Part shown: positions 1 to 54,848 of the stretch, piece by piece
How the letters are laid out: every line of letters starts with the position of its first letter
Numbering within the stretch: the first letter of the stretch is position 1
Assembly: GCA_963810095.1 (NCBI GenBank)
Contig: CAWEMM010000006.1
Location: 1,216,001-1,280,000, forward strand
DNA from: an uncultured Chloroflexia bacterium
GTDB taxonomy: Bacteria; Chloroflexota; Anaerolineae; CG2-30-64-16
Direction of reading: 5' to 3'
Length of the DNA: 64,000 nt
Notes under the pieces: model-generated
The model's database searches: none
The model's input: the letters and a program-made list of their open reading frames with translations, nothing else
Told to the model about the DNA's origin: nothing
Made by a program: the position numbers and the translations under genes

Positions 1-90
1 GCCGAATACTACCCCAACTCCCACGACGTGCTGCCCGGCGCGGCACAGGTGCAAGCCCTGCTTGCCAGGACCAGAAGGAGCGAGCCATGA
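1..90 (+). CDS. 3' end of an upstream gene, truncated by the window edge
   Basis: Frame 1 is open (AEYYPNSHDVLPG...RRSEP*); its TGA overlaps the next ATG (ATGA coupling). Confidence 0.55.
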   Translation, partial: AEYYPNSHDVLPGAAQVQALLARTRRSEP

Positions 91-725
91 CGTCGACGTT
101 TGCCGAACTGCAGGAAGCAGTGATTGACGGGCAGAACAAGCTGACCGTCAAGCTGGTTGAACAGGCACTGGCCGAGGGCCAGCCCGCCGGCGACATTCTC
201 AACAAGGGCTTGACGCCGGCCATGGAAGAAGTGGGCCGGCAATTCGAGCTCCGGGAGGTCTTCATCCCCGAGATGATGCTGGCCGCTCGGGCAATGCGGG
301 AGGGCGTGGATGCGCTGAAGCCCTACCTCAAGCAGGGCGACGTGAAGCGGGTCGGCAAGGCGGTCATCGCCACGGTAGAGGGCGACCTGCACGACATCGG
401 CAAGAACCTCGTCATCGTCATGGTCGAGGGCGCGGGCTTCGAGATTGTCGACCTCGGCGTCGACATCCCGGCCGCGGCCATCGTCGAGGCGCTGCGCCGG
501 GAAAAGCCGGACGTGCTGATGCTCAGCGCGCTGATCACGAGCACGCTCAACTACATGCGGACGACGATCCAAACCATCGAGGAAGCCGGCCTGCGCAGCC
601 AGGTCAAGATCCTGGTCGGCGGCGCGCCGGTCACCGAGTCGTTTGCGAAGCAGATCGGGGCAGATGGCTATGCGACCGACGCTGCGGGCGCGGCCCGGGT
701 GGCGCTCCAGGTCATCGGGCAGTAA
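87..725 (+). CDS. Corrinoid (cobalamin-binding) protein, MtaC/MttC/MtbC-like
   Basis: N-terminal cap domain (VFIPEMMLAA) plus B12 motif GDLHDIGKNLV...SAL...VGGA; AAGGAG RBS. Confidence 0.93.
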   Translation: MTSTFAELQEAVIDGQNKLTVKLVEQALAEGQPAGDILNKGLTPAMEEVGRQFELREVFIPEMMLAARAMREGVDALKPYLKQGDVKRVGKAVIATVEGDLHDIGKNLVIVMVEGAGFEIVDLGVDIPAAAIVEALRREKPDVLMLSALITSTLNYMRTTIQTIEEAGLRSQVKILVGGAPVTESFAKQIGADGYATDAAGAARVALQVIGQ

Positions 726-738
726 GGGGAGGTGGACC

Positions 739-1891
739 ATGCTGAGTGAAATGACCCCGCGAGCGGATCGAAGCCGTCTTCAACCACCGGGAACCGGACC
801 GGGTGGCCCTCTACGACATCGTCCACAACATCCCGATCCTGGAACACTTTGCGGGCGAGAAGATCACCGCCGCGAACGCGTTCGACACGTCGCTGCGCGG
901 CATCGGCTGCGCGCTCGACCTGACCCGCTGCATCGCGATCCCCGGCTCGGGCGAACGTGTGCACAGCGCTTCCCAGGGGTTCGAGTACTCGTTCGAGTGG
1001 TGGACGTTCACGATCACGAAGCGGCCGTACCGGGACGCCGCGCACCTTGCCGAGTGCGTGCGCCGCGAAATCGACGGCATTTACGATGCGATGGCCCACG
1101 GGAGGCTGACGGCAGACGCCGCGCTGATCGCGCAGCTCACCGCGTCCGACGCCCAATCGCCCGAGGAGGTGCACGACATCTATGCGAAGATGTGCCGCGC
1201 ACTTCAGCCGTGCGTGCTCATCCACCCCGAGAGCATCGTCGGGCTGACCACGGCCTACGTGCGCGCAGGGTGGGAGCTTTTCATCTACCTGATGGGCGAC
1301 GATCCCGAGCTGGTGGACCGCTGGCTGACCTGCCTGGCCGACTACGAGGTGTGGCGCATCCACAAGATCGCCGACCGCGAGCTGAGCCCGGTGGCCCTGG
1401 TGGCCGACGACCTGGCGGGCAAGGGCGGCCTCTTCTTCTCGCCCAAGTGGCTGCGCAAGCACTGGCTGCCCCACACCCAGCGCTGCATCGACGCGTGGCA
1501 CGAGCACGGCATCAAAGTCGTGTTCCACTCGGACGGCGACAAGATGCTCCTCCTCGACGACCTGGTACAGGCCGGCATCGACGGGATCAACCCCATCGAG
1601 CCAACGTGCAACATGACGGTCGGCGGGGTGAAGAAGCTCTATCCCGACCTGGTGGTGACCAGCATGATCGACTGCGATCAGCTGCTGCCTTTCGGCGAGC
1701 CCGATGAAGTCGAAGCGGCGTGCAAGCAGGCCATCGACGACGGCGCGGCCGGCGGGTCGTTCCTGCTCGGCTCGAGCTCCGAGCTGCACCCCGACGCCAA
1801 GCTTGAAAACTTCCTCAAGATGCGCGAAGTGGCGCTGACGTACGGCCAATACAGCAACAAGGCCAACTGGGGCGCACCGTCCTGGCAGTAG
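739..1891 (+). CDS. URO-D/MtaA-family protein (putative corrinoid-linked methyltransferase); indel near 760
   Basis: MTP(R)ERI..FNHREPDRV start, ADDLAGKGGLFFSP, FHSDG, GIDGINPIEP, GSSSELH. Confidence 0.82.
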
Positions 1892-1916
1892 TTCGCACCA
1901 GCAAAGAGAGGTAAAC

Positions 1917-3155
1917 ATGCAGACCTGGGAAAAACAATACACCATCCTGGCGGAGGACCTCGCCGGCCGCGGGGTCGACGTGGAGGCTGTCAAGGCGGCC
2001 ATCAAGAACCTGGTCATCGAGATGCCTTCCTGGGCGGTCGGCAACTCGGGCACGCGCTACGGCGTGTTTCGCCAGCCCGGCGCCGCACGGACCATCTGGG
2101 AGAAGGTGGACGACTGCGCAGAAATCCAGCGCGTACTGGGCGTCTGCCCCGTCATGGCGAGCCACGTCAACTGGGACAAGACCGACGACGGCCGCTACGA
2201 GCCGGTCCGCGACTATGCGGCGCAGCGCGGGCTGCGCATCGGCACGGTGCACCCGAACACCTTCCTCGGCCAGGAGTACAAATTCGGCAGCGTCTGCAAC
2301 CCGTTCGCCGAAGTGCGCCAACAGACCATCGACCACTTTATCGACTGCGTCCGCATCACCCGCGAGTTCGGCTCCAAGTCTGTCGGTATCTGGCTGGCCG
2401 ACGGCACCAGCTACCCCGGGCAAGACCACCTGCGCAGCCGGAAACACCGGCTCTACGACGGGCTCAAGGCGCTGTACGACGCGCTCGACCCCGACATGAC
2501 CCTCTTCATCGAGTACAAATTCTTCGAGCCGTTCTTCTACACGACGGACCTCCAGGACTGGGGCATGTCGTTCACCATGTGCCAGCGCCTCGGCCCGCGC
2601 GCCAAGGTCCTGGTCGACCTGGGCCACCACGCGTCGGGCGTCAACGTCGAGCATATCGTCTCGATCCTGCTCGACGAGAACAAGCTGGGCGGCTTCCACC
2701 TTAACAACCGCAAGTACGCGGACGACGACCTGATGGCCGGCACGGTCAACCCGCTCGAGCTGTTCCTGATCTTCGACCAGATTGTCGATGCTACGCTCGA
2801 CCCCCACACGGCAGACACGGCCAAGGGCATCACTTACATGCTCGACCAGTCCCATAATATCGAGGGCAGCCTGGAAGGCATTATCCAGTCGGTGATGAAC
2901 ACCCAGACGGCGCACGCCAAGGCCCTGCTGGTCGACCGGGCCGCGCTGCGCGAGGCGCAGGAAGCGGGCGACGTGATCCTCGCGAACCGCACGCTGATGG
3001 CCGCGTATGACACTGACGTCCAGCCCTTGCTCAAGCAGGCCCGCGTCGAGATGGGCCGGCAGCCCGACCCGATCGTCGACTTCCGCGCCTGCGGTTACCT
3101 GCAGCACATTGCCGCCACCCGCACGGGCGCAGGGCTTGGCGCGCTGGGCGGATGA
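1917..3155 (+). CDS. rhaI: L-rhamnose isomerase (RhaI type)
   Basis: IEMPSWAVGNSGTRYG, WLADGTSYPGQ, EYKFFEP, VDLGHH, KYADDDL, MLDQSHN. Confidence 0.88.
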   Translation: MQTWEKQYTILAEDLAGRGVDVEAVKAAIKNLVIEMPSWAVGNSGTRYGVFRQPGAARTIWEKVDDCAEIQRVLGVCPVMASHVNWDKTDDGRYEPVRDYAAQRGLRIGTVHPNTFLGQEYKFGSVCNPFAEVRQQTIDHFIDCVRITREFGSKSVGIWLADGTSYPGQDHLRSRKHRLYDGLKALYDALDPDMTLFIEYKFFEPFFYTTDLQDWGMSFTMCQRLGPRAKVLVDLGHHASGVNVEHIVSILLDENKLGGFHLNNRKYADDDLMAGTVNPLELFLIFDQIVDATLDPHTADTAKGITYMLDQSHNIEGSLEGIIQSVMNTQTAHAKALLVDRAALREAQEAGDVILANRTLMAAYDTDVQPLLKQARVEMGRQPDPIVDFRACGYLQHIAATRTGAGLGALGG

Positions 3156-3165
3156 GGAGGCGGGG

Positions 3166-3489
3166 ATGAAACGCGTCGGCATGACATGGCAGGTCCGCCC
3201 CGAGCACTGGGAGGAATACAAAGCCATCCATCTGAACCCCTGGCCCGAGCTCCTCACCGCCATCCAGGAGCACGGCATCCACAATTACAGCATCTTTGCC
3301 GTCGGCACCCGCGTCTTCGCGTACATGGAGGTCGACGGTGACGATGTCTATGCCGCACTCGGAGCCCTGGCGCAAACCGAGGTCAAGCAGCGCTGGGACG
3401 CCGAGGTAACGCTGTGGGTGGCGCCCGAAGCCGAGGCCGGGAGCGGCATCCAGTTCCTCGAGCTGGAGCGGATCTTCTATTGCCCCTGA
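3166..3489 (+). CDS. rhaM: L-rhamnose mutarotase
   Basis: EEYKAIH..WPEL...GIHNYSIF pattern; GAGGAGG RBS. Confidence 0.85.
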   Translation: MKRVGMTWQVRPEHWEEYKAIHLNPWPELLTAIQEHGIHNYSIFAVGTRVFAYMEVDGDDVYAALGALAQTEVKQRWDAEVTLWVAPEAEAGSGIQFLELERIFYCP

Positions 3490-3496
3490 GGATCAA

Positions 3497-4579
3497 ATGA
3501 ACGCTACCACCCCACCCGCCGCCCGGGCGGCCGAGATGACTTCGCTCGAACGAGTGCAGGCCGTGCTGCGCCGCGAAGAGCCCGACCGCGTCCCTCACTT
3601 CGAGTGGGTGCACGATGCGGGCGTGACCGCAGCACTGACCGGCGGCGGCGCCTATTGGGACCTGGTCGACCGGCTCGACATCGACGGCGTGATGGTGGCG
3701 CCCGCCTACCGCAAGCAGCCGGCCGCCCCGGGCGCGCCCGCGGGCGCCCTGCTCGACGAATGGGGCGTGACCCGCATCGTCGCGCCCGACGGCTATGCGA
3801 TGGTCGTCGAGGACCACACCCCCATTCGCGACGAAGCGACGTTCGCAGCGTGGCAGCCGCCCGATCCTGACGACCCGTATCGTTATGAACCGCTCCGCCG
3901 CACCGTGGCTCGCTTCGGCGGCCGGCGCGCCATCATCCTCCAGATGCGCGACGTGTTCTCGGGCGTACGCGACTGCATGGGCTACGAGCGCGCGCTCGTG
4001 AACATGATCGAAAACCCCGCGTTGGTGACCGCGGTCGTGGAGCAGTGCGTCGACCACTACATCCGGGTGATCCGGCACGCCGCGCCCCTGGGCGTCACGA
4101 TCGTCTTCACGGGCGACGACATCGCGAACGCCCGCGGCCCGCTCTTCTCGCCGCGGCTCTGGCAGAAACTGCTCCTGCCCCACTACCGGCGGTTGGTCGC
4201 CGCCATCCATGACGCCGGCCTGTACCACTGGAAGCACTCGGACGGCAACCTCTACCCGTTCCTCGACAGCATCGTCGACGCAGGCACCGACGGCATCGAT
4301 CCGATCGATCCGATGGGGGGGATGGACCTGGCCACGGTCAAGCAGCGCTACGGGAGCCGGGTCGCGATCAAGGGCAATGTCGACCAGGTCGAGCTGCTCA
4401 CCGGTGGCACGCCCGAGGCCGTCGCCGCAAGCGTGCAGTCGTGCATCGCCGCGGCCGGCAGGGGCGGCGGCTACGTCTGTTCGTCCAGCAATTCGATCCA
4501 CTCGGGCGTGCGCCCCGATCTGTACCGCGCGATGGTCGAAGCCATCCACACCTACGGTCGCTATCCGTTGAGCTGGTAA
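3497..4579 (+). CDS. URO-D/MtaA-family protein
   Basis: MTSLERV...EPDRVP, DEWGV, GDDIA..GPLFSP, KHSDGN, IKGNVD, SSSNSIH. Confidence 0.87.
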   Translation: MNATTPPAARAAEMTSLERVQAVLRREEPDRVPHFEWVHDAGVTAALTGGGAYWDLVDRLDIDGVMVAPAYRKQPAAPGAPAGALLDEWGVTRIVAPDGYAMVVEDHTPIRDEATFAAWQPPDPDDPYRYEPLRRTVARFGGRRAIILQMRDVFSGVRDCMGYERALVNMIENPALVTAVVEQCVDHYIRVIRHAAPLGVTIVFTGDDIANARGPLFSPRLWQKLLLPHYRRLVAAIHDAGLYHWKHSDGNLYPFLDSIVDAGTDGIDPIDPMGGMDLATVKQRYGSRVAIKGNVDQVELLTGGTPEAVAASVQSCIAAAGRGGGYVCSSSNSIHSGVRPDLYRAMVEAIHTYGRYPLSW

Positions 4580-4588
4580 GGGGGAAAT

Positions 4589-6061
4589 ATGCCCAAGTAC
4601 GTCGCCATCGACCTGGGCGCCGAGAGCGGCCGGATCATCGTCGTCACGATGGATGCGGCCGCGGGCTGCGTGGCGCTCGACGAGGTGCATCGCTTTCCCA
4701 ATGGTCCGGTCCAGGTGGGCGGGAGCCTGCACTGGGACGTCTTGCGGCTGTGGAGCGAGATCAAGCTGGGTCTGCGCAAGGCGGCCGCGGCGCATCCCGG
4801 CGAGCTGCGTTCCGTCGCCGTCGACACCTGGGGCATCGACTACGCGCTCCTCGACCGCCGCGGCGCGCTGCTCGGCAACCCCTACGCCTACCGGGACCCT
4901 CGAACGAACGCGGTCTTCGCGCCCGCGGTGGAGAAGGCCGGGCGCTGGGACATCTACCGCCAGAGCGGCGGCGTCCAGTTCATGTCGATCAACACGCTCT
5001 ACCAGCTCTATGCGGCGGCCCTGCAGGGCGACCCGGCCCTGCAGGCTGCCGACACCTTCCTCATGCTGCCCGACCTCTTCGGCTACTGGCTGACCGGCGA
5101 GCGGGCGTGCGAATTCACCGATGCGACGACCACGCAGTTTTATGACGGCGCGGCCCGCCGCTGGGCGACCGGGCTGCTCGACTGCCTCGGGATCCCGACC
5201 GCCATGCTGCCGCCCGTCATCCTGCCCGGCACGCAGCTGGGCGTGCTGCGCGCGGACGTGGCCGAGGAGACCGGGCTGGACCGGCTGCCGGTCATCGCCG
5301 TTGCGGGCCACGACACGGCCTCCGCGGTGGTTGCCGTGCCGGCCGACAGCGGCCACTTCGCCTGGCTGAGCTCGGGCACATGGTCGCTGCTGGGCGGCGT
5401 ATCTGACGAGCCCATCGTGACCGAGCAGGCGCTGGCCTACAACTTCAGCAGCTACGGGGGCGCCGCAGGCCAGTTCCTGCCGTGGAAGAACATCATGGGC
5501 TTGTGGTTGGTCCAGGAGTGCCGGCGGGCGTGGAGCCGCGAGGGGCGCGAACTCTCCTACGACGAGCTGACCGAACTGGCTGCGGCCGCGCCGCCGTTTG
5601 GCTACCGGCTCGACCCGGACGACCCCGCGTTCCTTGCGCCGCCAAACATGCCCGAGGCCATTGCGGCCTACTGCCGGCGCACGGCCCAACGCCCGCCCGT
5701 GGGCCCCGGCGAAACCGTACGCGGGGTGCTCGAGAGCCTGGCCGTGTGCTACCGGCGCACGCTCGAGTGGTTATCTGAGCTGCAGGGGCGGCGGTTCGAC
5801 GCGCTCTACGCCATCGGCGGCGGCACGAAGAACAGCCTCCTGTGCCAGTTCACGGCCGACGCGTGCGGCGTGCCCCTGATTGCAGGCCCGGTGGAAGCCA
5901 CCGCCTTGGGCAACGCCGCGCTGCAGGGCGTGGCGCTGGGGGATTTCGGCTCGCTGGACGAGGCCCGCGGGGTGATTCGCCGCTGCGCCGAAGTGGTCGT
6001 CTATGAACCTGGTGCGGGCGGCGGCTGGGACGAGGCGTACGCGCGGTTCGCCGCTCGTTAG
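4589..6061 (+). CDS. rhaB: Rhamnulokinase (FGGY family)
   Basis: AIDLGAESGR, VDTWGIDY, GHDTASAV, SSGTWSL, KNIMGLW, GPVEATALGN. Confidence 0.92.
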   Translation: MPKYVAIDLGAESGRIIVVTMDAAAGCVALDEVHRFPNGPVQVGGSLHWDVLRLWSEIKLGLRKAAAAHPGELRSVAVDTWGIDYALLDRRGALLGNPYAYRDPRTNAVFAPAVEKAGRWDIYRQSGGVQFMSINTLYQLYAAALQGDPALQAADTFLMLPDLFGYWLTGERACEFTDATTTQFYDGAARRWATGLLDCLGIPTAMLPPVILPGTQLGVLRADVAEETGLDRLPVIAVAGHDTASAVVAVPADSGHFAWLSSGTWSLLGGVSDEPIVTEQALAYNFSSYGGAAGQFLPWKNIMGLWLVQECRRAWSREGRELSYDELTELAAAAPPFGYRLDPDDPAFLAPPNMPEAIAAYCRRTAQRPPVGPGETVRGVLESLAVCYRRTLEWLSELQGRRFDALYAIGGGTKNSLLCQFTADACGVPLIAGPVEATALGNAALQGVALGDFGSLDEARGVIRRCAEVVVYEPGAGGGWDEAYARFAAR

Positions 6062-6104
6062 CAGCAGAGCGGCACTCGCAGGGGAGCAGGGCGGCTCAAA
6101 CGCA

Positions 6105-6159
6105 AGATTTCGAAAATCTCCAAAAATCTATTGACAGATTTCGAAATCTGCAGTAGGGT
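6105..6159 (+). promoter_or_regulatory. Sigma70 promoter with palindromic operators
   Basis: TTGACA (6131)-17 bp-TAGGGT (6154); perfect palindrome CAGATTTCGAAATCTG at 6135-6150; near-copy AGATTTCGAAAATCT at 6105-6119. Confidence 0.8.
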
Positions 6160-6206
6160 GTAAGCGTCAACTTTCACTAATCCACTTGCTCAATCCGCGG
6201 GACCCT

Positions 6207-7912
6207 ATGACCAGCTTCCAGCGACGCCAGCGCCTGTTAAGCCTCCTGCGCGAGCAACCGGGAATCCGCGTTCCCGAGCTCGCCCGGCTCCTTGGCGTCT
6301 CGGAAGCAACCGTCCGCAACGATCTGAATACGCTGGCCGGCGCCGGGCAGATCACCCGGGTGCGCGGGGGCGCGGTGCCGGGCGACGCCAACAGTGTCCC
6401 GGTGCCTGACTACTCGGTGCGGGCTGCGGTCAACGAGTCCGCCAAGCTGCGCATGGCGCGGCTGGGCGGCCGACCTGGTGGAAGATGGGGACGCCATCCT
6501 GCTCGACGCCAGCTCGACTGTCTATCACATGGCCCAGTTCCTCGAAACCCGCCGCCGCCTGACCATCATCACCAACGGCGTCGAGGTCGGCCGTAAGCTG
6601 GCAGCCAACGGCGACCACAAGGTGATCCTGCTGGGCGGCGCGATGCGCCAGGACGGCGCTTCCGTGACCGGCCTGCTGAGCGGCTCGCTGCTGCGCACGC
6701 TCCGCATCAAGCTGGCGTTCCTCTCCTGCGCGGGCTTCGCACTCGACGCCGGCCTCACCGAGGTCGACATCGAAGAGGCGCAGCTCAAGAGCCAGATGAT
6801 CGCCTCCGCAGGCTCGGTCGTCGCGCTGATTGATTCGAGCAAGTTCGGGCGCCTCGCGCTCATGCCGTTTGCCCGCCTCGACCAGGTGTCGCACATCTTC
6901 ACGGACAATGATATCGACGCGGGCTGGGTCGAGCAGCTGCGCCAGGCCGGCGCCACCCTCACCGTCTGCGCCACCAACACGATCTCCACCTTCCCGCCGG
7001 GCGCGCAGGAACAAGAGCACTACCGCATCGGGTTTGCCAACCTGAGCGAGCAGATTCCCTTCGCCGTCGACGTGCGCCGCAGCCTGGAACGGGCGGCCCA
7101 GGATGCCGGAACGGTGGACCTGGTGGTGGCCGACAACCGGCTGGACGGCGAACACGCGATCACGGTCGCCGACCGCCTGCTCGCCCAGGGGCTGGACCTC
7201 CTGATCGAATACCAGGTCGATGCCCAGGCGGGCGAAGTCATCATGAGCCGGTGCCGGGCGGCGGGCGTCCCGGCCGTGGCAGTCGACATCCCGATGTTGG
7301 GCGCCACCTTCTTCGGCGTCGACAACTACCGGGCGGGTTACATGGCCGGCGAGGCGCTGGGCAAGTGGGTCTGCGCCCATTGGGGCGGCGAGCTCGACCG
7401 GCTCTTTGTGCTGGAAGAGCCCCGCACGGGCCAATTTGCAGCCACCCGCATGCGCGGCCAGTTGGAAGGCCTGCAAAACGCGGTCGGGCCGCTGCCCGAA
7501 GAGAAGATCGTGCACGTCGATTGCGGCAACACGGCGGAGACCACTGCAGCCCGGCTGCGGCCCCTGCTGCAAGACCCCACCGTAGCCGGCCTGCACCGGC
7601 TCGCCGCCGTTTCGATCAACGACGACGCTGCGATCGGCGCGATTGCTGCCGCGGCGCGCATTGCGGCGGGCAGCGGACCTCATCGTGGTGGGCCAGGGGG
7701 CCGACCGCCGGGCGCGCGAGGAGCTGCTGCGCCCCGACTCCCGGCTCGTCGGCTCCACTTCCTACATGCCCGAGCGCTACGGCGAGAAACTCATCCCGCT
7801 GGCGCTCAACATCCTGCGGCGCGCGCCCGTGCCGCCGGCGGTTTATGTGGAGCACCACTTCATTACTGCCGAAAACCTGGTCGACTTCTACCCGTCGCGC
7901 CTGCCGGAGTAA
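6207..7912 (+). CDS. DeoR-family regulator fused to an RbsB/LacI-type sugar-binding domain; indels near 6460 and 7660
   Basis: HTH (VSEATVRNDL...RVRGGA), DeoR sensor (ILLDASST, IITN, IDSSKFG), then in frame RIGFANLSE...VDIP...FGVDNY. Confidence 0.82.
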
Positions 7913-7968
7913 TCCGGACGCCGGAAGGCCCTTGCCCGTGTCCGGGCCGAACTGAGCTCGAGGAGACC

Positions 7969-9141
7969 ATGGCCAACCATTGCGAAACGATGACGTCCCG
8001 CGAACGGGTGCACATTGCCCTCAACCACGGCGAGCCGGACCGCGTCCCCATAGACCTGGGCGGCTTTCAGACCGGCATCCACCGCGTGGCCTACGAGGAT
8101 CTGCTCGGGTACCTCGGCGTCGACGAAGCGTTCGAGCTGCGCGACCCCGTCCAACAGTTAGCCGTTCCCTCCGAGCGCATCCTCGAATTGCTCCATGCCG
8201 ACTTCCGCTACGTCACCGCGCACGGGCCGGCCAGCTTCACGGGCGCCATCGAGGAAAACACGCGGGGCGGCAAGCTGTGGTACGACCTGCGCGACGAATT
8301 CGGCGTGGTTTGGTCCATGCCGGCCGACCAGATGCTCTACATGGACATCACGCATCACCCGCTGGCCCACGCAACCCTCGCCGACCTCGAGCGCTATCCC
8401 TGGCCCGACGGTAAGGACCCGACACGGTTCACCGGCGTGCGCGAGAAAGCGCTCGCCCTGCGCCAGCGCACGCCCTATGCGCTCTCGAGTGGGATCAGCG
8501 GCGTCACCTACGAAACCTGTTGGTATTTGCGCGGGCTCGAACGGTGGTTCATGGACATGGTGGAGGACCCCACGTTCTGCGAGGCGCTGATCGATCGCAC
8601 CGCGCAGTACTGGGTCGACTGGATCCCCGGCTTCCTCGCCGAGGTGGGCGATCTCCTGGACGTGATCATGATCGGCGACGACCTCGCGGGGCAGAACGGG
8701 CCGCTTTTCTCGCCCAAGTTCTACCGCCGTGTCGTCCGCCCTCGCCAGCAGCGGGTGGTGGATGCGATCAAGGCACGCACCAACGCCAAAATCTGGTACC
8801 ACACCTGCGGCGACTGCTCGGTCTACATCCCCGACCTGATCGACATGGGGGTGGACATTCTCAACCCCGTGCAGATCAGCGCCCGGGGCATGGACCCGGC
8901 AACGCTCAAGCGCAAGTACGGCGACAACCTGGTGTTCTGGGGCGGCGGCATCGACGCACAGCACATCCTGCCGTTCGCAACCCCCGCCGAGGTGCGCGCC
9001 GAGGTCCGCCGCAATCTCGAAATCTTCCGGCCGGGCGGCGGTTACATCTTCAACAACGTGCACAACATCCAGGCCGGCGTGCCGCCTCAGAACGTAATGG
9101 CCCTGTACGAGGCCGCCTACGAGTTCGGCTTCTACGAATAA
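7969..9141 (+). CDS. URO-D/MtaA-family protein
   Basis: GAGGAG RBS; MTSRERV...EPDRVPIDLG, DEFGV, GDDLAGQNG, YHTCG, LNPVQ, FWGGGID, HNIQ. Confidence 0.88.
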   Translation: MANHCETMTSRERVHIALNHGEPDRVPIDLGGFQTGIHRVAYEDLLGYLGVDEAFELRDPVQQLAVPSERILELLHADFRYVTAHGPASFTGAIEENTRGGKLWYDLRDEFGVVWSMPADQMLYMDITHHPLAHATLADLERYPWPDGKDPTRFTGVREKALALRQRTPYALSSGISGVTYETCWYLRGLERWFMDMVEDPTFCEALIDRTAQYWVDWIPGFLAEVGDLLDVIMIGDDLAGQNGPLFSPKFYRRVVRPRQQRVVDAIKARTNAKIWYHTCGDCSVYIPDLIDMGVDILNPVQISARGMDPATLKRKYGDNLVFWGGGIDAQHILPFATPAEVRAEVRRNLEIFRPGGGYIFNNVHNIQAGVPPQNVMALYEAAYEFGFYE

Positions 9142-9205
9142 AGGCGGCCGCCCAGAACGGCGCGGCGACCTGCCGGCGGGCCGGCAGGAACATGAAGGAG
9201 GGCTG

Positions 9206-10733
9206 ATGACCGAGGAAATGGCCCCGCTGCTGAGCATGAAAGGCGTCAGCCGGCGGTTCCCAGGGGTGCTGGCGCTGGACCACGTCGATTTCGACCTGCG
9301 AGCGGGCGAAGTGCACGCACTGGTAGGCGAAAACGGCGCGGGCAAATCCACGCTGATCAATATCCTCGCGGGGGTGCACCCACCATCCGGCGGCGTGCTC
9401 GAGCTGGCCGGCAAGCCGACAGTGCTGCCCGACCCGGTCAGCGCGCAGCGGGCGGGTATCAACGTCATCTTCCAGGAATTCAACCTGCTGCCCCACCTCA
9501 GCGTCGCGGAGAACATCTTCCTCAACCGTGAGCCGACCCGCGGGCCGCGCATCGATTGGCCGGCCCTCCACCGGCGCACCGCCGAAGTGCTCAAGCAGCT
9601 CAAGATCGACTTGAACCCGCGTACAGTCGTGCGCGAGCTGCCCGTCGCGCAACAGCAGTTGGTCGAGATCGCCCGTGCGCTGGCCTTCGACGCGAAGGTC
9701 GTCGTGATGGACGAACCCACCGCGGCGTTGTCAGAGGTTGAGATCGGCCGGCTGATGGAGCTCGTCCGTTCGCTGGCCGGCCGCGGGGTGGGCGTGATCT
9801 ACGTGTCGCACAAGCTCTCCGAGGTGTTCACGGTGGCAGATCGGATCACCGTGCTGCGCGACGGCAAACGCATCCTCACTGCGCCGCGCAGCGAGCTCAC
9901 CGAGCGCCAGGTGGTCACCGCGATGGTGGGCCGCGAGTTGGCCTATACGAAGTGCCCGCCGCGCCGCCCGGGCGAGCTCGTGCTTTCGGTGCGCGACTCT
10001 TTCCTCGGGCCGGGCCGTTCAGGGCGTGTCGTTTGACCTGGCGGCCGGCGAGGTCGTCGGCCTGGCCGGCCTGATGGGCAGCGGCGGCCTCGAGTTGGTC
10101 GAAGCCCTGTTTGGCTTGCGGCCGATTACGGGCGGCGAGGTCCTGCTCGAGGGCAAGCCGCTGCTCGCGCGGGGCCCGCGCCAAGCCATCCGGGCGGGGT
10201 TGGCGTACGTGCCGGATGACCGGAAGGGCGCGGGCCTCTTGCCCGACCTCTCCGTCCAGCACAACATCAGCATCGGCGTCATCGAGCGACTGCGCCGGGG
10301 CCCGATCATCGACGTGCGGCGGGAGAGCGAGCTGATGACCGAGTACGGCGGGAAACTCTCGATCCGCTATGCGAGCCCGAAGCAGTTCGTCAGCGACCTG
10401 AGCGGCGGGAACCAGCAAAAAGTGATCCTGGCCCGTTCGCTCGCCGAGCAGTGCAAGGTGCTGCTGCTGGCCGAGCCCACCCGCGGCGTCGACGTGGGCG
10501 CGAAGCAGGAGATTTACGCACTCATCGACATGCTGCTCGAGCAGGGCATCGCAATCGTCCTGCAATCGTCAGAACTTCCCGAACTCATTCGGCTGGCCGA
10601 GCGCTGCCTCGTCTTCGCCGGCGGGCAGATGCGCGGCGAGCTGGCGGGCGCCGAGTTCACGCAGCCCAACGTCATGGCCCTCGCCACGGGACTCGATCCG
10701 TCCCACGTCGTGCAGGAAAGTGAGGTGGCATAG
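9206..10733 (+). CDS. Sugar ABC transporter ATP-binding protein (RbsA-like); indel near 10010
   Basis: GENGAGKST, MDEPT, LSGGNQQKV, EPTRGVDVGAK. Confidence 0.9.
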
Positions 10734-11717
10734 GTGGAGCGCATCCGTGCAACCGCGGGGCGGCTCTGGCGCTCGTACAGCGTCGCGGTCGTCGTGATCG
10801 TCTTGGGCGTCATCCTGGCGATCCTGTCGCCCCGGTTCCTGCTGGTCGGCAACTTGCTGAACGTCTTGACGAACGCTTCCGTGATCGCGATCGTTGGCCT
10901 GGGGATGACCCTGGCGATCGCGTCCGGCAACTTCGACTTGTCGGTCGGCGCCACCGCCGCCTTCGCAGCCTGCATTGCCTTCAGCATTGTGCCCGTGCTG
11001 GGTGTTCCGGCCGGGATCCTGGTCGGGCTGCTGGTGGGCGCCGCGATCGGCCTGGCCAACGGCATCATCATCACCGAGCTGCGCGTCAACGCCTTCATCG
11101 CCACGCTGGGCGTCGGCAGCGTCGTGCGCGGGGCCACCCTGCTCTTCACCAGCGGCCGCGACATGTATCTGCAGGGCTACCCCGGCTACAAGGTTCTGTC
11201 GGGCGGGCACATCCTGGGCATCCCCATGCCCGTGATCATGGCGCTGCTGCTGGCCGCGGTGCTGGGCCTCGTCATCGCCCACACCCGCTTCGGCCGCTAC
11301 ATCCTGGCGGTGGGCAGCAACGCCGCGACGGCCCGGCGTTCCGGTGTGCCGGTCAACCGGGTGCTCTGGGGCATCTTTGCGATCGTCGGCGCGACCGCCG
11401 CGCTGAGCGGGCAGATCTACAGCGCCCAGGTGGTGACCGCCAGCGCCCGCATCGCGGTCGGTCTCGAGTTGTCCGCCATCGCGGTCGTCGTCGTGGGCGG
11501 CACTCCGCTCACCGGCGGGCGGGCGTCGCTGATCGGCACCCTGCTCGGCAGCCTGCTGATCGCCATGATCAACAACGGGCTCAACCTGCTGAACGTCTCG
11601 GTGCTCTACCAGCAGGTGACCATCGGCCTGCTCCTCCTGTTCACGCTCGCCATCAGCGTGGAGCGGAAGCGCAAGGTGACCGGTCCCCTGCCGCAACAGG
11701 GCCGGAGGGCGGCATGA
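10734..11717 (+). CDS. Sugar ABC permease (RbsC-like)
   Basis: Hydrophobic; GNFDLSVG, HTRFGRYILAVG, ELSAIAVVVVGG. Confidence 0.9.
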   Translation: MERIRATAGRLWRSYSVAVVVIVLGVILAILSPRFLLVGNLLNVLTNASVIAIVGLGMTLAIASGNFDLSVGATAAFAACIAFSIVPVLGVPAGILVGLLVGAAIGLANGIIITELRVNAFIATLGVGSVVRGATLLFTSGRDMYLQGYPGYKVLSGGHILGIPMPVIMALLLAAVLGLVIAHTRFGRYILAVGSNAATARRSGVPVNRVLWGIFAIVGATAALSGQIYSAQVVTASARIAVGLELSAIAVVVVGGTPLTGGRASLIGTLLGSLLIAMINNGLNLLNVSVLYQQVTIGLLLLFTLAISVERKRKVTGPLPQQGRRAA

Positions 11718-12717
11718 CGACAGCAGCTGACACCCGCAGCAGAGGCAGGCGGACCACTCGCAACTGGGCCCTCTTGTGGGAGAAATACGGCATTACCGCC
11801 GTTCTGGTGGTCGCCTGGATCTTCGCCGCGCTGTTCACGCCGAACTTTGCGACCGTCGACAACCTCGCCAACGTGCTCCGCTCGGCCAGCTTCGTGGGCA
11901 TCGCCGCGGTCGGCATGACGATTGCGATCATCTCCGGGACGTTCGACCTCTCGGTCGGGTCCACCCTCGCGCTGGCCGCGGTGGCATGCGTCTGGACGGG
12001 GTCGCGCTACGGTGTGGTCGCTTCGGTCGCCGCCGGCTTGCTGGCCGGCTTGGCCGTCGGCGCCATCAACGGCCTGCTCGTCCGCGGGTGCGCATCCCCG
12101 CGTTCATCGCAACCCTGGGCATGCTGTTCGTGGTCAGCGGTTTCACGCTGATTCTCACCGGCGGGCAGGCCTACCGCTACAACGCACCAAACTTCGTGTG
12201 GCTGGGCAACGGGGATGTATTGGGGTTCCCCGTGCCGTTCCTCGTTTTTCTGATCTGCGCCCTCTTGGGCGAAGGCGTGCTGCGCCGCACGGTGTTTGGC
12301 CGGCACGTGTTTGCCACGGGCAGCAACCCGACCGCCGCCGAGATCGCAGGCGCACCGGTGCAGCGCATCTCGGGCCTGGTGTTCGTGGTCGTGGGCCTGT
12401 TCGCCGGCCTGGCCGCAGTCCTGCTGGCCGGCCGGTTGTACTCGGCCGGCCCCGGCCTCGAGCCGGGCTTCGAGCTGCGAGTGATCGCAACAGTCGTGCT
12501 CGGTGGCACCCGCTTGCAAGGTGGCCGCGGCGGTATGCTGGGCACCGTGTCGGCCGCTATCCTGTTTGCCACGCTGGCTAACGTGCTGAACCTGTTCCAC
12601 GCCGATGCTTTCTGGCAGCGCGTCGTGGAGGGCCTCGTGCTCCTGCTCGCCCTCTCGATCGAAGGCATCCGGCAGCGAGTCGAGGAGCGCATGAGCCGGC
12701 GCACGCAAGGAGACTAA
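11714..12717 (+). CDS. Sugar ABC permease; indel near 12085
   Basis: GTFDLSVG, IPAFIATLG, TVFGRHVFATG, ELRVIATVVLGG across two frames. Confidence 0.87.
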
Positions 12718-12799
12718 GAAGGAGGTGTACGAACCCCCAAATCGGTCACAATGTCGTGCTTATACAAACGTTCCCACATTCCCCAAGGAGGAAAACAGA

Positions 12800-13787
12800 A
12801 TGTCTCGCAAGGTTTGGATGTTCGTCCTCGTCGCCCTGTTGATCGCGGCCGTCATGCTGACGAGCTGCGCCCCCCAGGCCGCGCCGCAAGCGGCTGCGCC
12901 CGCCGCAAAGAAGAAGATCGGCTTCTCGGTCTACGACATGCAATACGGGTTCTTCCAGGACATGGAGAAGGGCACCCGTGAGGCCGCGCAGGCGGCAGGG
13001 TACGACTACGTGCTGGTCGACCAGAAGTCGAGCGAGTCGACGATGGTCTCCGCGACGCAGGACCTGATCAACCAGGGCATCGAGCGCGCTGATCATCTCG
13101 CCGGTCAAGCCCGATGCCATGGGGCCCCTGGTCGATGCGGCCAAGAAGAAGGGCATCCCGGTCGTGGTCGACGACATCGGCGGCGGCGGCACGGCGTATG
13201 ACGTCATCGTCATCTCGAACAACGCCGAGGGCGGCGTGATGGCGGCCGAGCACCTGGACAAACTGATCCAGAAGACGGGCAACACGTCGAAGAAGGTTGC
13301 GTCGATCACGTGCGACCCGACCGCCGTGTACGCGTGGCAGCGTAACGTCAACTTCGAGAAGAAAATCAAGGAAATGGGCTACACCGTCGTCGCGTCCCTT
13401 AACGGCAACAGCAAGCAGGAAGAAGGCTACCGCCTGATGAAGGACGTCCTGTCGGCGAACCCCGACGTAGCGGGGATCTTCTCCTGCAACGATCCGATGG
13501 CCGTCGGCGCAGCCCAGGCCATCGCCGACAGCGGCAAGAGCGGCGTCAAGGACATCCCGGTGGTTGGCTTCAACGCAGACGAGATCGCGCTGAAGGCCAT
13601 CAAGGAAGGCTCGATGGCCGCCACCGTCCAGCAGATCCCGTACGACATGGGCAAGATGACCGTCGCGTTGGCCACGAAGCTCATGAACGGCGAGAAGCTG
13701 AAGTTCGACAAGGAAGCCGAGCGCGAGATTTACGTCCCCGTGAAGCTCATCACGGCCGAGAACGTGGACACCCTGCTGAAGAAGTAA
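12800..13787 (+). CDS. Sugar ABC substrate-binding lipoprotein; indel near 13085
   Basis: AAGGAGG RBS, lipobox LTSC, KKIGFS, NDPMAVGA, VVGFN, ATVQQ. Confidence 0.88.
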
Positions 13788-13804
13788 GCTCTCTCAGCGT
13801 TAGG

Positions 13805-13841
13805 GCCGCCCGATCATGATTTGGTCGGGCGGCTTTCTTTT
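13805..13841 (+). terminator. Intrinsic terminator
   Basis: GCCGCCCGATCA...TGGTCGGGCGGC stem followed by TTTCTTTT. Confidence 0.8.
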
Positions 13842-38849: not shown

Positions 38850-40582
38850 GATGCTGTTGGCGAAATGGTTCATGCCGGTGCCAGTGCTGCGAAATGAGAC
38901 ATCCTGGTTGTGGATCGAGGGACGCCGGTCAGCCAGGCGATGACACGTCTCACATTGATGGCAGCGGCCGTGATCAGGTGTTGGAAATGCGTTTTGGCTA
39001 ATCCGCGATAGCGGCTGCGGCGCATATCGAGCTTATCGGTGGCTTGGCCGATGGTTCCTTCGATGCCAGATCGGATGGTATACGCTTCCTTGAATTCGGC
39101 AGTTGCCTGGCGCTGGCGTGCCGCTTGAAGAGCGAGTTGTTGCTCTTTGGGCTGCAAAGTCAAGCCGCGGGGCGTGGACGCACTTTTCGTGCAGCGCGCC
39201 CGGCTTGCGCAGGCCAGACAGTCTTTTTCGCCAAAGTGTACCTGGAGGGTGGGCTTGCCCCGTGGTCCTTTGGCGGGCCACCAGCAGCGGCTGGTTTTGC
39301 CCATCGGACAGATTACGACATGGCGTTCCCAATCAATTTTGAATTGGGTAATATCAAACGCCTGCGGGTCTTGGCGCTGCCAACTCACGTCAGGACGGAC
39401 AGGCCCGAGCAAATCAACGCCGTACTTGTCCTGGCTGCTCACTAACAGTTCGGCGGAGGGATATCCAGCGTCAACGAGGTGTTGGCTGGGCAGAAGTTCC
39501 TTTGTTTCCAGAGCCGCATGAACCCGTTCCACGACCATGTTGTCCTGCTCTGTGGCAGGGGTCGTCTCAACATGCGTGATCAAGTTGGGACGATCCGGCT
39601 CACAGGTCTCAGTCAGATGGACCTTGTAACCGTGCCAGAAGGTCTCGCGCTTGACTGAAGAGCACGCTTCTTCGTCGTAAGGCGAGACGATTGCTTGGCA
39701 GCTGGGTGGGGAGTTCTTCTCGTCTCGCCAGGAAAGGCGGTCGTCTTCCAGGTAATAGTTCTGTATCCACACCCGGCGTAGGGTTTCCACGGCCGGGACA
39801 CGGCGCAGATGATTTGGCGCAGATGCTGCCCACACCTGGCGCAGAAGCTGGGAGCCATCACGGCCGATTTGTTCGGCCAATGCCAGTTGTTCGGCGTCGC
39901 TTCTGGGCAAGCGAAAGCCGGTCGGGCGCTGGCTGTAGCGCTCGAACCAGTCAGGTTGGATGCATGTACGCAGCCAGTCGGGAGCCAACTGCGCTAATAC
40001 ATCCAAAGCGTGGTAGAGCGTTTCGCTGACCAATTCAACCCGGTTCAGCTTGCGCACCGCTGCCACGATATGCGTCGAGTCGGTTCGCTGGCGGGTGCGC
40101 GCTTTGAGCCAGCCACGTTCCTTAAACAGCTTGAGCAGCGCTTCAAATAGCAGGTTCTCTGCCTGACAGCTGATCAAGCGACAGCGGAACTCGCACAATA
40201 CGGAGTAGTGGAAGCCAGCATCGGTGAGTTCGAGACCCAAGGCGTACTTCCAGTCAATGCGACTGCGCACAGCATCCGCAGCTTGCCGATCCGTGAGATT
40301 CTCGGCAAACTGCATGATGGTGACCAATGCCAAGCGCCATGGCGTCTCGCAAGGCTGACCCCGCCGAGGGTAGAAAGCAGCAAATTGCTCGTCGCGAAAC
40401 ACGGTGCCCAACTCGTCACGGAACCGCATGCACCAATTGTCGTCTGGAAACACGGCACGCGCTACTTGCGCCGTTTGCTCTGGAATGGCAAAGTCGTCGC
40501 TCGGCTGGAGACACATCTTTCACCTCCTGCTCGGAGGTTCAATTATACATCGGCACGGCGACTCGAATTCGCCAACAGCATC
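38850..40582 (-). mobile_element. IS1182-family insertion sequence
   Basis: 15-bp TIRs GATGCTGTTGGCGAA (38850) and TTCGCCAACAGCATC (ends 40582); direct repeat ATATG at 38845-38849 and 40583-40587; lower GC than the flanking genes. Confidence 0.92.
38870..40516 (-). CDS. tnp: IS1182-family DDE transposase, intact
   Basis: LTDRQAADAVRSRIDWKYALGL, QRTDSTH, GYKVHLTETC, LVDAGY, RSGIEGT, RYRGLAK. Confidence 0.93.
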   Translation of the reverse strand: MCLQPSDDFAIPEQTAQVARAVFPDDNWCMRFRDELGTVFRDEQFAAFYPRRGQPCETPWRLALVTIMQFAENLTDRQAADAVRSRIDWKYALGLELTDAGFHYSVLCEFRCRLISCQAENLLFEALLKLFKERGWLKARTRQRTDSTHIVAAVRKLNRVELVSETLYHALDVLAQLAPDWLRTCIQPDWFERYSQRPTGFRLPRSDAEQLALAEQIGRDGSQLLRQVWAASAPNHLRRVPAVETLRRVWIQNYYLEDDRLSWRDEKNSPPSCQAIVSPYDEEACSSVKRETFWHGYKVHLTETCEPDRPNLITHVETTPATEQDNMVVERVHAALETKELLPSQHLVDAGYPSAELLVSSQDKYGVDLLGPVRPDVSWQRQDPQAFDITQFKIDWERHVVICPMGKTSRCWWPAKGPRGKPTLQVHFGEKDCLACASRARCTKSASTPRGLTLQPKEQQLALQAARQRQATAEFKEAYTIRSGIEGTIGQATDKLDMRRSRYRGLAKTHFQHLITAAAINVRRVIAWLTGVPRSTTRMSHFAALAPA

Positions 40583-53348: not shown

Positions 53349-53477
53349 CCGGGTGCCCCGCCGAGCGGGCACCCCGCCAAGCGGGCGCACGACGCCGAGC
53401 GAGAACAGCCGCAGCTTCAGTGGTGGGCGCGTCCGCAGCGCTTCGCCCGCCCGATTACAGTGAGGAGAGCCAGAACC

Positions 53478-54708
53478 ATGAGTTCTACCCAACAGCTAGC
53501 CGAAGTCCGCACCCGCGTTAACCAGAGCCGCGACGAAATCCTGCAGTTCCTCCGCGATATCTGCGCCATCCCGTCCATGAATTCCGAGATCGGCCCGGTC
53601 GGCGAGCGCATCCAGCAAGAAATGCGCAAGCTGAACTGGGACGAAGTGCGCTTCGACAAAATGGGCAACACGATCGGCCGCATCGGCGACGGGCCAAAGG
53701 TCATCGTTTACGACTCGCACATCGACACCGTCGGCATCGGCGACCCGAACGAGTGGCCCTGGGACCCCTTTGTGGGCAAGATCGAAGACGGCCGCCTGTG
53801 GGCGCGCGGCGCAGTGGATGAGAAGGGCAGCACGCCCGGCATGGTGCACGGCCTCGCCATCGCCCGCGACCTCGGCCTCCTCGACGGCTACACGGTCTAT
53901 TATTTTGGCAACATGGAAGAATGGTGCGACGGCATCGCGCCCAACACCTTCGCCGAGGTCGATCCGAAGGTGAAGCCCGATTACGTGGTGATCGGCGAGC
54001 CGACCAAGATGAACGTCTATCGCGGCCACAAGGGGCGCATCGAGCTGAAGATCACGGCGTCGGGCCGCTCGGCCCACGCGGCTTCGCACTACCTGGGCGA
54101 CAACGCGGTGTACAAGATGATGGCCGTCATCACCCAAATCCGCGAGCTCGACCGCCGCATGCGGTTCGGCATGGGCTATCACCCCCTGCAGGGTTATCCT
54201 TCCATTGCCGTCACTAACGTGGAAGCCCGCACGGCTTCGCTCAACGCGGTGCCCGATCAGTTCACCATCTACATCGACCGCCGCATCACGAGCAATGAGC
54301 CGCATGACAACGTCATCGAGGTCGTCAAGGGCCTGATCCCCGACTACCTCCAGGACGAGATCCACGTCGAAGAGCTTTTCTATGACACCCCGTCGTACAC
54401 CGGGTTTGTCTTCCCCGTGTCGAAGTACTATCCGGCATGGGTGCTCGAAGACACGCACCCCCTCGTGCACGCGGGGCAGTTGGCCGGGCAGCAGGTTTGG
54501 GGCGCTACGCCCACGCTGGGCAGCTGGGACTTCTCGACGAACGGCACCTATTGGGCAGGCAAGGCCGGCATCCCCTCCATCGGCATGGGGCCCGGCGACG
54601 AAAAGACCGCCCACATGATGAACGAGAACGTGCCGCTGGACGAGGTCGTGGCCTGCGCCGAGTTCTACGCGGCGCTCCCCCAGGCCATCCGGGAGTGCAG
54701 CTGCATAA
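53478..54708 (+). CDS. ygeY: YgeY-family M20 hydrolase, copy 2; terminal indel fuses it to the next ORF in the track
   Basis: YDSHIDTV, RGAVDEKG, MEEWCDG, RGHKGR, WDFSTNG, GMGPG. Confidence 0.83.
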
Positions 54709-54723
54709 GCAGGCTGTTACGTT

Positions 54724-54801
54724 CACAGAAAGGACACGAAGACCAAAGTGCGACTAAGCCCTGCTACCTTGCGCAGCTTTGGTTTTTTGGTCCTTTGTGG
54801 T
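54724..54801. repeat. Intergenic palindrome with ~9-bp-periodic arms (degenerate)
   Basis: CACAGAAAGGACACGAAGACCAAAG...CTTTGGTTTTTTGGTCCTTTGTGGT. Confidence 0.65.
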
Positions 54802-54848
54802 TGAGGTCGAACATCACGGTACCCACACCATTCAGGAGGCATGCATCA

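Follow-up and report, generated by a model that had tools for sequence, protein, structure and literature searches.

A rhamnose-type operon of an uncultured Chloroflexia bacterium carries a candidate corrinoid-dependent module for demethylating methylated 6-deoxyhexoses

A corrinoid module within a rhamnose-type gene island

The stretch of DNA analysed here, referred to as the window (64,000 nucleotides; G000:C6:1216001-1280000), comes from the genome bin of an uncultured Chloroflexia bacterium and begins with a single co-directional island on the + strand (window 1-13840), running from a regulator gene through a terminator. Within this island, a corrinoid protein (CP) and three proteins of the uroporphyrinogen decarboxylase (UroD) superfamily, here called UroD1, UroD2 and UroD3, are encoded among genes for an L-rhamnose isomerase-like protein (RhaI), a mutarotase-like protein (RhaM), a rhamnulokinase-like kinase, a sugar ABC importer and two regulators of sugar-sensing type. 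In our judgement the chances are about even that the island is the only rhamnose-type catabolic operon of the organism, extended by a corrinoid-dependent module that demethylates methylated 6-deoxyhexoses. A cobalamin-dependent demethylation pathway had been proposed for this cluster in an earlier sequence-only reading, and Pfam and NCBIfam searches confirmed every gene that it named (CP, three UroD, rhaI, rhaM, rhaB, the ABC importer and a regulator), all on the + strand. The host bin has 6.13 Mb in 16 contigs, 65% G+C and an estimated completeness of 88.5%, and its relatives by protein search are Chloroflexota labelled Caldilineales/Caldilineaceae.

The features of the island are as follows (all on the + strand; aa, amino acids; PBP, periplasmic-binding-protein-type sugar domain; SBP, sugar-binding protein).

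1..86, +, 3' end of regulator 1 (HTH_DeoR + DeoRC + Peripla_BP_4, about 590 aa; Pfam DeoRC 1.8e-28, Peripla_BP_4 6.6e-20, HTH_DeoR 3.9e-14; open reading frame map)
87..725, +, CP, MtaC/MtgC-like, 212 aa (Pfam B12-binding_2 + B12-binding; TIGR02370 193.7 bits)
739/755..1891, +, UroD1, UroD-superfamily protein, putative corrinoid methyltransferase with an HSDG motif (Pfam URO-D 4.3e-11)
1917..3155, +, RhaI-type L-rhamnose isomerase-like protein (TIGR02635 521.7 bits, cut-off 531.35)
3172..3489, +, RhaM-like mutarotase (Pfam rhaM 1.2e-22; TIGR02625 55 bits, cut-off 99.6)
3497..4579, +, UroD2, UroD-superfamily protein, putative corrinoid methyltransferase with a WKHSDGN motif (Pfam)
4589..6061, +, rhamnulokinase-like FGGY kinase (TIGR02627 443.1 bits, cut-off 527.95)
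6186/6207..7909, +, regulator 2, DeoR helix-turn-helix + DeoRC + PBP (Pfam; frames joined across two +1 slips, about 6480 and at 7653)
7969..9141, +, UroD3, UroD-superfamily protein with an HTCGD motif (Pfam, NCBIfam, alignments)
9206..10733, +, two-domain CUT2-type sugar ABC ATPase (Pfam ABC_tran in each half; frame slip about 10030)
10734..11717, +, ABC permease 1, BPD_transp_2, RbsC/AraH-like (Pfam, NCBIfam)
11714..12717, +, ABC permease 2 (Pfam; frame slip about 12100)
12800..13787, +, sugar-binding lipoprotein SBP, Peripla_BP_4 (best match RbsB-like, 96.6 bits, vs RhaS, 36.5 bits; frame slip 13082)
13802..13836, +, terminator-like hairpin with a 15-bp stem and a T tail, closing the cluster (sequence)

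From CP through the kinase the intergenic gaps, taken from the coordinates, are only 7-30 bp. Regulator 1 is an intact second DeoR-PBP regulator whose start lies 1.78 kb 5' of the window (L001:18219), and upstream the island is bounded by PGI on the opposite strand. The rhamnose-type enzymes each have a rhamnose family as their top NCBIfam match, yet all three score under the equivalog cut-off, and the RhaI of the window is the sole RhaI match in its genome. With 44 URO-D matches in 6.13 Mb, the genome holds about one per 139 kb, against three plus CP inside 9 kb here; the clustering is therefore not due to chance.

Regulators that join HTH_DeoR, DeoRC and a PBP-type sugar domain in about 570-680 aa represent an unusual architecture that recurs in rha clusters of Chloroflexota, and further examples were seen at L007:5721-7421, L047:15750-17540 and L099:5091-7127.

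UroD1, UroD2 and UroD3 are distinct from HemE

Against the Pfam URO-D profile, UroD1, UroD2 and UroD3 score 42.9, 101.9 and 82.1 bits, respectively, and cover it only from about 97-160 to 346; the best URO-D match in the genome reaches 351.3 bits over profile positions 2-279 plus 278-345. None of the three matched a HemE model in NCBIfam at E<=1e-5, their sole matches there being models of MtaA, CmuA and MtbA, and these at low scores: TIGR01463 gives 72 bits for UroD2 and 47.3 bits for UroD3 vs a cut-off of 235.4, and UroD1 matches only the MtbA model, at 28.8 bits. Judged by these profiles, the three proteins are not HemE, an outcome in favour of the sequence-only reading, which true uroporphyrinogen decarboxylases would have refuted.

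The three proteins are 26-28% identical to one another and share the motifs ER..A....EPDRV, GDD(L/I)A..G..FSP, H(S/T)(D/C)G and GG(G/S)(Y/F). In MtaA, a His-x-Cys motif provides zinc ligands. The HMMER alignment places HSDGN of UroD2 against HICGN of MtaA, with HSDGD in UroD1 and HTCGD in UroD3 at the same place, so that the Cys of His-x-Cys is replaced by Asp in UroD1 and UroD2 and retained in UroD3. Within the UroD2 family, H247, D249 and C328 are invariant (15 of 15 sequences). The structure model of UroD2 (pLDDT 90.4) has MtaA as its top fold match (4ay7, also 4ay8; TM 0.75/0.79), and HemE structures reach TM 0.70-0.72 to the same model, values at which MtaA-like and HemE-like proteins are not confidently separable by fold. 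A sequence search of the PDB found nothing for UroD1 and only weak matches, to HemE and MtaA, for UroD2 and UroD3.

UroD3 belongs to a tight family, all of its top 120 matches being 71-90% identical, with no fusion protein among them, and its database names in Atlas are limited to 'URO-D family'. No orthologue above 44% identity was found in the five genomes having related clusters. UroD3 would be either a candidate methyltransferase II (MT2) or a third methyltransferase I (MT1). Its distribution is patchy despite this strong conservation, and a 73%-identical copy was seen in another family of the class (L101).

The UroD proteins and the corrinoid protein

The CP of the window carries both modules of its class (PF02607, 5.1e-21; PF02310, 9.4e-28) and a DLHDIG His-on loop (D-x-H-x-x-G). 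Its connection with UroD2 is seen in gene fusions: among the 120 listed relatives of UroD2, 45 are fused to a B12-binding module (43 to PF02607 + PF02310 and two to PF02310 alone), always with the corrinoid module N-terminal to URO-D. All 45 are 60-66% identical to UroD2, and these CP::UroD2 fusions lie in its nearest sister clade. The window CP and the N-terminal corrinoid module of one of them (P0019) are 48% identical over 204 aa, ungapped. These fusions constitute the strongest link in favour of a corrinoid partnership of UroD2.

For UroD1, a predicted complex points in the same direction. The CP-UroD1 model scored 0.78 vs 0.00 for the best control, a mark attained in complex modelling by 51 of 78 solved complexes and by 2 of 108 mismatched pairs. 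Contacts agreed between runs at 92% or more, the pLDDT of the partners was at least 81, and the predicted interface brings the cobalamin face of CP onto the top of the UroD1 barrel around GDDLAG/HSDG. The model thus supports docking of CP on UroD1.

A corrinoid-independent alternative has to be weighed here, namely that some or all of the UroD paralogs are sugar-modifying enzymes tied to FGGY kinases, with CP acting for a single one of them or in some unrelated reaction. Many UroD genes do lie in sugar clusters free of CP in the stretches examined, including C14:264-278 kb and C7:445-460 kb of the same genome and L063, L026 and L080 elsewhere; the UroD superfamily also includes the corrinoid-free HemE and MetE, both of which came up in the fold search; and UroD1 and UroD2 have Asp in place of the Cys of MtaA. 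We nevertheless consider this alternative unlikely, given the CP::UroD2 fusions in the nearest sister clade, the CP-UroD1 model, the three RACo activators of the genome, and the presence of free-standing CP-sized open reading frames (208-237 aa) in four of the five distant genomes whose UroD-FGGY pairs have no adjoining CP.

Conservation of the association with rhamnose and sugar kinase genes

The sequence-only reading would have lost its ground had the association proved peculiar to this genome, and other genomes were found to conserve it. The synteny set consisted of hand-picked loci, compared by means of open reading frame lists and Pfam, with frames above 100-200 aa only. Among contigs from one genome per species, 337 of 352 candidate stretches were confirmed as carrying a UroD2 family member, and the family ranges over Chloroflexota, Planctomycetota, Verrucomicrobiota (including Kiritimatiellia and Victivallales), Spirochaetota and Acetivibrionales. 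A UroD2-type gene is present in, or at most 13 kb from, five of the six rha-type clusters examined (the window, G001, G003, G004 and the Firmicute locus L063), and three of the six have the corrinoid module.

In G004 the order is DeoR, CP::UroD2, DeoR/PBP, ABC, two permeases, an RhaS-like SBP (230 bits), an alpha/beta-hydrolase, RhaI (76% identity), RhaM and kinase; G001 has the same gene set plus a 5-kb insert. In G003, an unfused UroD2 is divergent from DeoR, which is followed by DUF455, DeoR-PBP, SBP, ABC, permease, RhaI, RhaM, creatininase and kinase. The Acetivibrionales locus L063 encodes LacI, SBP, ABC, permease, a GDSL esterase, RhaI (510.7 bits), UroD and a rhamnulokinase (438 bits), with no CP seen in the stretch examined. 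No aldolase was seen among the open reading frames scanned in the related rha clusters.

Two other gene types were seen within such clusters. Esterase-type genes (alpha/beta-hydrolase, GDSL) stand between importer and RhaI at L006:18718-19488, L083:2382-3353, L063:8098-8748 and L084:10977-11972, which suggests that decorated sugars, acylated as well as methylated rhamnose, are the substrates of these clusters. Creatininase-family genes lie within deoxyhexose/UroD clusters at L084:13416-14144 (G003, between RhaM and kinase) and at L088:10204-11028 (contig C7 of the host genome, between SBP and UroD).

UroD2-like genes adjoin FGGY sugar kinases in five phyla. At the distant-phylum loci an FGGY kinase directly adjoins the UroD2 homologue in three of four cases (L063, L026 and L080), kinases of specificities other than rhamnose included, and in the spirochaete locus L066 the kinase adjoins a UroD paralog, with MTHFR and a pterin-binding protein among three UroD genes. 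Of 26 further loci from 23 genomes, at least nine have an FGGY_N match no more than 2 kb from the UroD2 homologue. Among the 150 matches listed out of 291, such a neighbour was seen for at least 9 of the 11 homologues at 41-45% identity and for none of the 15 at 48-66%; in this census locus L079 was equated with contig C52 by matching coordinates only.

RhaI, UroD1 and UroD3 were each found in none of seven genomes of the same genus (75-90% complete), so the island behaves as one accessory unit that travels together, and UroD2 had a single homologue of only 44% identity in one of the seven.

Frame slips and the integrity of the island

About six single-base frame slips occur in 13.8 kb, or about one every 2 kb (755-758, about 6480, 7653, about 10030, about 12100 and 13082), affecting the start of UroD1, regulator 2 (twice), the ABC ATPase, permease 2 and the SBP. 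In UroD1, an ATG at 739 is preceded by GGAGG and the frame is lost in the C-run at 755-758; the homologues begin about 22 aa before the first in-frame start codon of the window copy. Logan contigs from four public runs (X1-X4, the first three labelled freshwater sediment metagenome) were aligned to 6100-13800, and near-identical contigs covered two of the slips, 7653 and 13082, leaving those at about 6480, 10030 and 12100 and the start of UroD1 uncovered. At 7653 the one near-identical contig is one base shorter exactly at the slip site, and the same is true at 13082 for one contig in each of two studies. Because the one-base insertions at both sites are missing from near-identical public contigs, the frameshifts are probably assembly errors and the genes intact. 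Pfam matches divided over neighbouring frames are seen across the whole genome as well, and fragmented gene calls are to be expected in it.

Frame slips also account for a candidate that we rejected, a fusion of regulator and UroD in a 915-aa open reading frame (6394-9141); this apparent gene is artefactual and arises from a long open frame (slips in regulator 2; insertion at 7653). Farther along the window, a 789-aa open reading frame (53460-55829, +) with M20 peptidase domains and a complete aspartate/ornithine carbamoyltransferase may be a real fusion or two genes merged by an assembly frame error, and a DDE transposase gene (DDE_Tnp_1_6 + DUF772) lies in mid-window (38870-40516, -).

These data bear on the idea of a chance juxtaposition or a decaying cluster, in which unrelated methyltransferase genes would have drifted into an ordinary rhamnose operon. 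The slips themselves would fit decay, 44 URO-D matches in one genome make neighbours easy to obtain, and in G041 a rha cluster stands alone. This explanation is largely refuted, and we hold it to be very improbable, since both slips covered by near-identical contigs are one-base assembly insertions, split domain matches are found genome-wide, the linkage recurs in five of six rha clusters from two phyla, and the genes are spaced as in an operon.

Other components of the predicted pathway in the genome

The genome of the organism contains, besides its 44 URO-D matches, 22 B12-binding matches, three RACo activators and Pterin_bind at three sites in four matches. At C6:58001-70000 (L086), a homocysteine (Hcy) S-methyltransferase protein, a CP, a 781-aa RACo and a Pterin_bind protein are encoded side by side, an arrangement that we read as a split MetH-like system or a core one-carbon (C1) module. 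Aldolase_II matches number seven genome-wide, none of them on C6:1216-1280 kb, where a rhamnulose-1-phosphate aldolase (RhaD/RhaEW) would be expected to stand with the operon. The sequence-only reading had directed attention to the neighbourhood of the cluster for a RACo-type activator, a methyl-tetrahydrofolate (methyl-THF) methyltransferase and rhaD; none is next to it, and all three functions are encoded elsewhere in the genome.

Several other loci of this genome combine UroD genes with sugar-related functions. C7:445001-460000 (L088) contains a rhamnulokinase-like gene (49% identity), a fucose-isomerase-like gene, a CUT1 ABC system, creatininase, two UroD and LacI, and C14:264001-278000 (L087) contains four UroD, an FGGY kinase, two SorC regulators and an EIIC-GAT sugar permease. 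At C9:100001-110000 (L089), two UroD and a CP are accompanied by a PBP-fused hybrid histidine kinase, AraC and a LacI-type regulator.

A third corrinoid-related neighbourhood, C9:520001-540000 (L085), has RACo, a 2Fe-2S ferredoxin, an MFS transporter, a UroD fragment, DUF1638, a class II aldolase and a GH127-like protein.

A proposed pathway and its substrate

Methyl ethers on sugars such as methyl-rhamnose, methyl-fucose, 6-O-methyl-galactose and 4-O-methyl-glucuronate block ordinary catabolism. In the pathway that we favour, the CUT2 ABC system would import a methylated 6-deoxyhexose, for instance 2-, 3- or 4-O-methyl-L-rhamnose from algal, plant or bacterial glycans, and the two DeoR-PBP regulators would sense it. 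UroD1 and/or UroD2 would be the substrate-specific MT1: a His/Asp(/Cys) site, at the place of the His-x-Cys zinc site of MtaA, would polarise the ether oxygen, and Co(I) of CP would accept the methyl group from the sugar ether. RhaM, RhaI and the kinase would then process the freed rhamnose, the final step falling to an aldolase encoded at another locus, and the methyl group of methyl-Co(III) would go to tetrahydrofolate or homocysteine via UroD3 or via the pterin-binding/Hcy-methyltransferase module (C6:58-70 kb). Cobalt oxidised to Co(II) could be repaired by one of the three RACo activators. In this scheme the identity of the substrate as a methyl sugar, the direction in which the methyl group moves, the metal site and the assignment of MT1 and MT2 are inferred.

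The earlier interpretation as a corrinoid-dependent O-demethylation is thus partly supported, by the conserved association and the non-HemE character of the UroD proteins and, as to corrinoid dependence, by the CP fusions and the CP-UroD1 model; MT2, RACo and rhaD, for which it had proposed to look upstream, were not found in cis.

A number of observations weigh against the proposed pathway. Pfam scans of the cluster and its flank found MT2, RACo and aldolase all missing in or beside it. In G041, which has the closest RhaI (83% identity), the cluster consists of regulator, ABC, SBP, RhaI and kinase with neither UroD nor CP, so the rha genes can do without the module. UroD1 and UroD3 lack conservation across the related rha clusters, and the 73%-identical UroD3 orthologue of L101 follows an Opp-type ABC importer instead of a sugar importer. 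In sugar clusters, UroD paralogs mostly occur with no CP adjoining them in the stretches examined (L087 and L088 in the same genome; L063, L026 and L080), and some members of the family may act independently of a corrinoid. Resemblance to solved corrinoid complexes may have contributed to the CP-UroD1 score, and the score does not discriminate among the paralogs as partners. Cleavage of an aliphatic methyl ether by Co(I) is chemically harder than that of aryl ethers. Finally, a methylated sugar is implicated only indirectly, the role of the module being deduced from sequence and modelling.

With respect to the methyl donor, one possibility is that the module demethylates a compound other than a sugar that arrives together with rhamnose, such as the methoxylated aromatic aglycones of plant rhamnosides, or methanol, while the rha genes use the sugar part. 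The characterised bacterial UroD-superfamily O-demethylases named in two articles all act on aryl methyl ethers, thiols and halomethanes (PMC10418091, PMC3727330), and an MT2 and an activator shared in trans would be in keeping with generalist systems. Against this, Pfam scans found no rhamnosidase or aromatic-compound gene in the cluster, the importer belongs to the CUT2 type for monosaccharides, and the sensor domains of both regulators are of sugar type. Moreover, the repeated pairing of UroD with FGGY kinases, whose specificities differ, in five phyla points to the sugar itself, and we regard a non-sugar donor as improbable.

MtaA-type enzymes commonly carry out thiol chemistry, and the donor might instead be another methylated sugar derivative, bearing an S-methyl or N-methyl group or belonging to another sugar class that enters via RhaI-like enzymes. 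The scores of the rha enzymes under their equivalog cut-offs and the RbsB-like rather than RhaS-like SBP of the window would be compatible with this. For RhaI, RhaM and the kinase, however, the rhamnose models are by far the best, and the SBP of G004 is RhaS-like; a donor of this kind seems to us rather unlikely.

Comparison with known systems

The MtaA/MtaC methanol:coenzyme M methyltransferase system is similar in the fold of UroD2, the NCBIfam matches to MtaA, CmuA and MtbA, and the MtaC/MtgC-like CP. The proteins of the window differ from it in scoring far under the family cut-off (72 vs 235 bits), in having HSDG in UroD1 and UroD2 where MtaA has HICGN, and in the lack of both MtaB and a coenzyme M context. 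CmuA-type fusions resemble the close relatives of UroD2, which likewise have a corrinoid module and a UroD-type barrel in one chain; in the UroD2 relatives the corrinoid module is N-terminal, and in the window the two are separate genes. CmuA has the opposite domain order and acts on chloromethane.

The aryl methyl ether O-demethylases of acetogens and Desulfitobacterium consist of MT I, corrinoid protein, MT II and an activating enzyme (PMC3727330, PMC10418091), and the window shares with them a cap plus Rossmann CP adjoining UroD-superfamily genes. Judged by gene content, RACo-type activators and THF-side methyltransferases are further points of likeness, although here they are encoded elsewhere in the genome and neither MT II nor the activator stands in cis. 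The module of the window differs in its setting, an operon for sugar uptake and breakdown with regulators of sugar type, and in its presumed leaving group, an aliphatic sugar alkoxide instead of a phenolate.

The only carbohydrate demethylase that we found in print is a P450 enzyme of marine bacteria that removes the methyl ether of 6-O-methyl-D-galactose and so opens the sugar to catabolism (PMC6292453), which would make it the functional counterpart of the present module. It is oxygen-dependent, has an unrelated fold and releases formaldehyde, whereas the proposed system would need no oxygen and would keep the methyl group on the corrinoid. Searches of the full-text literature, with subscription journals and supplements outside their reach, found neither a corrinoid-dependent sugar O-demethylase nor papers linking uroporphyrinogen-decarboxylase-family genes with rhamnose or fucose genes.

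As to the sugar side, the L-rhamnose regulon of Chloroflexi type (Rodionova et al. 2013) comprises a DeoR-family RhaR, RhaM, RhaB, an ABC importer and RhaEW (PMC3870299), and the window has in common with it a DeoR-family regulator, an ABC importer, isomerase, mutarotase and kinase in one locus. RhaEW is stated there to occur always in rha loci (PMC3870299); the locus of the window has no RhaEW/RhaD, and its regulators bear the additional PBP domain. The main text of that article, supplements being outside the search, contains no occurrence of 'corrinoid' or 'uroporphyrinogen' (PMC3870299). The mlp clusters (Kountz & Balskus preprint) concern methyl-sulfur and methyl-selenium chemistry and not sugars, and the Stordalen Mire paper mentions methoxylated compounds in general only.

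Implications for carbohydrate use in anoxic habitats

The new aspect of this system would be a corrinoid methyltransferase system acting on a new class of substrates and wired into sugar operons. More broadly, the pairs of UroD2-like proteins and FGGY kinases in Chloroflexota, Planctomycetota, Verrucomicrobiota, Spirochaetota and Firmicutes may constitute a widespread, unrecognised group of oxygen-independent, corrinoid-dependent carbohydrate O-demethylases that deliver methyl groups to the folate/methionine C1 pool, a generalisation that we advance tentatively and with somewhat less than even confidence.

If it is true, the methylated sugars of algal, plant and bacterial glycans would be unlocked in anoxic habitats, which would explain the use of methyl sugars by polysaccharide degraders of sediment, soil and gut, and the decay of glycans would be linked to the C1 pool (methyl-THF, methionine and possibly methane precursors). 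The approximately 40 UroD paralogs of this organism would then represent a repertoire of substrate-specific demethylases, comparable to a repertoire of glycoside hydrolases. Such enzymes would provide oxygen-free catalysts for the demethylation of aliphatic ethers, and a function would be at hand for the very large set of genes annotated as 'uroporphyrinogen decarboxylase'.

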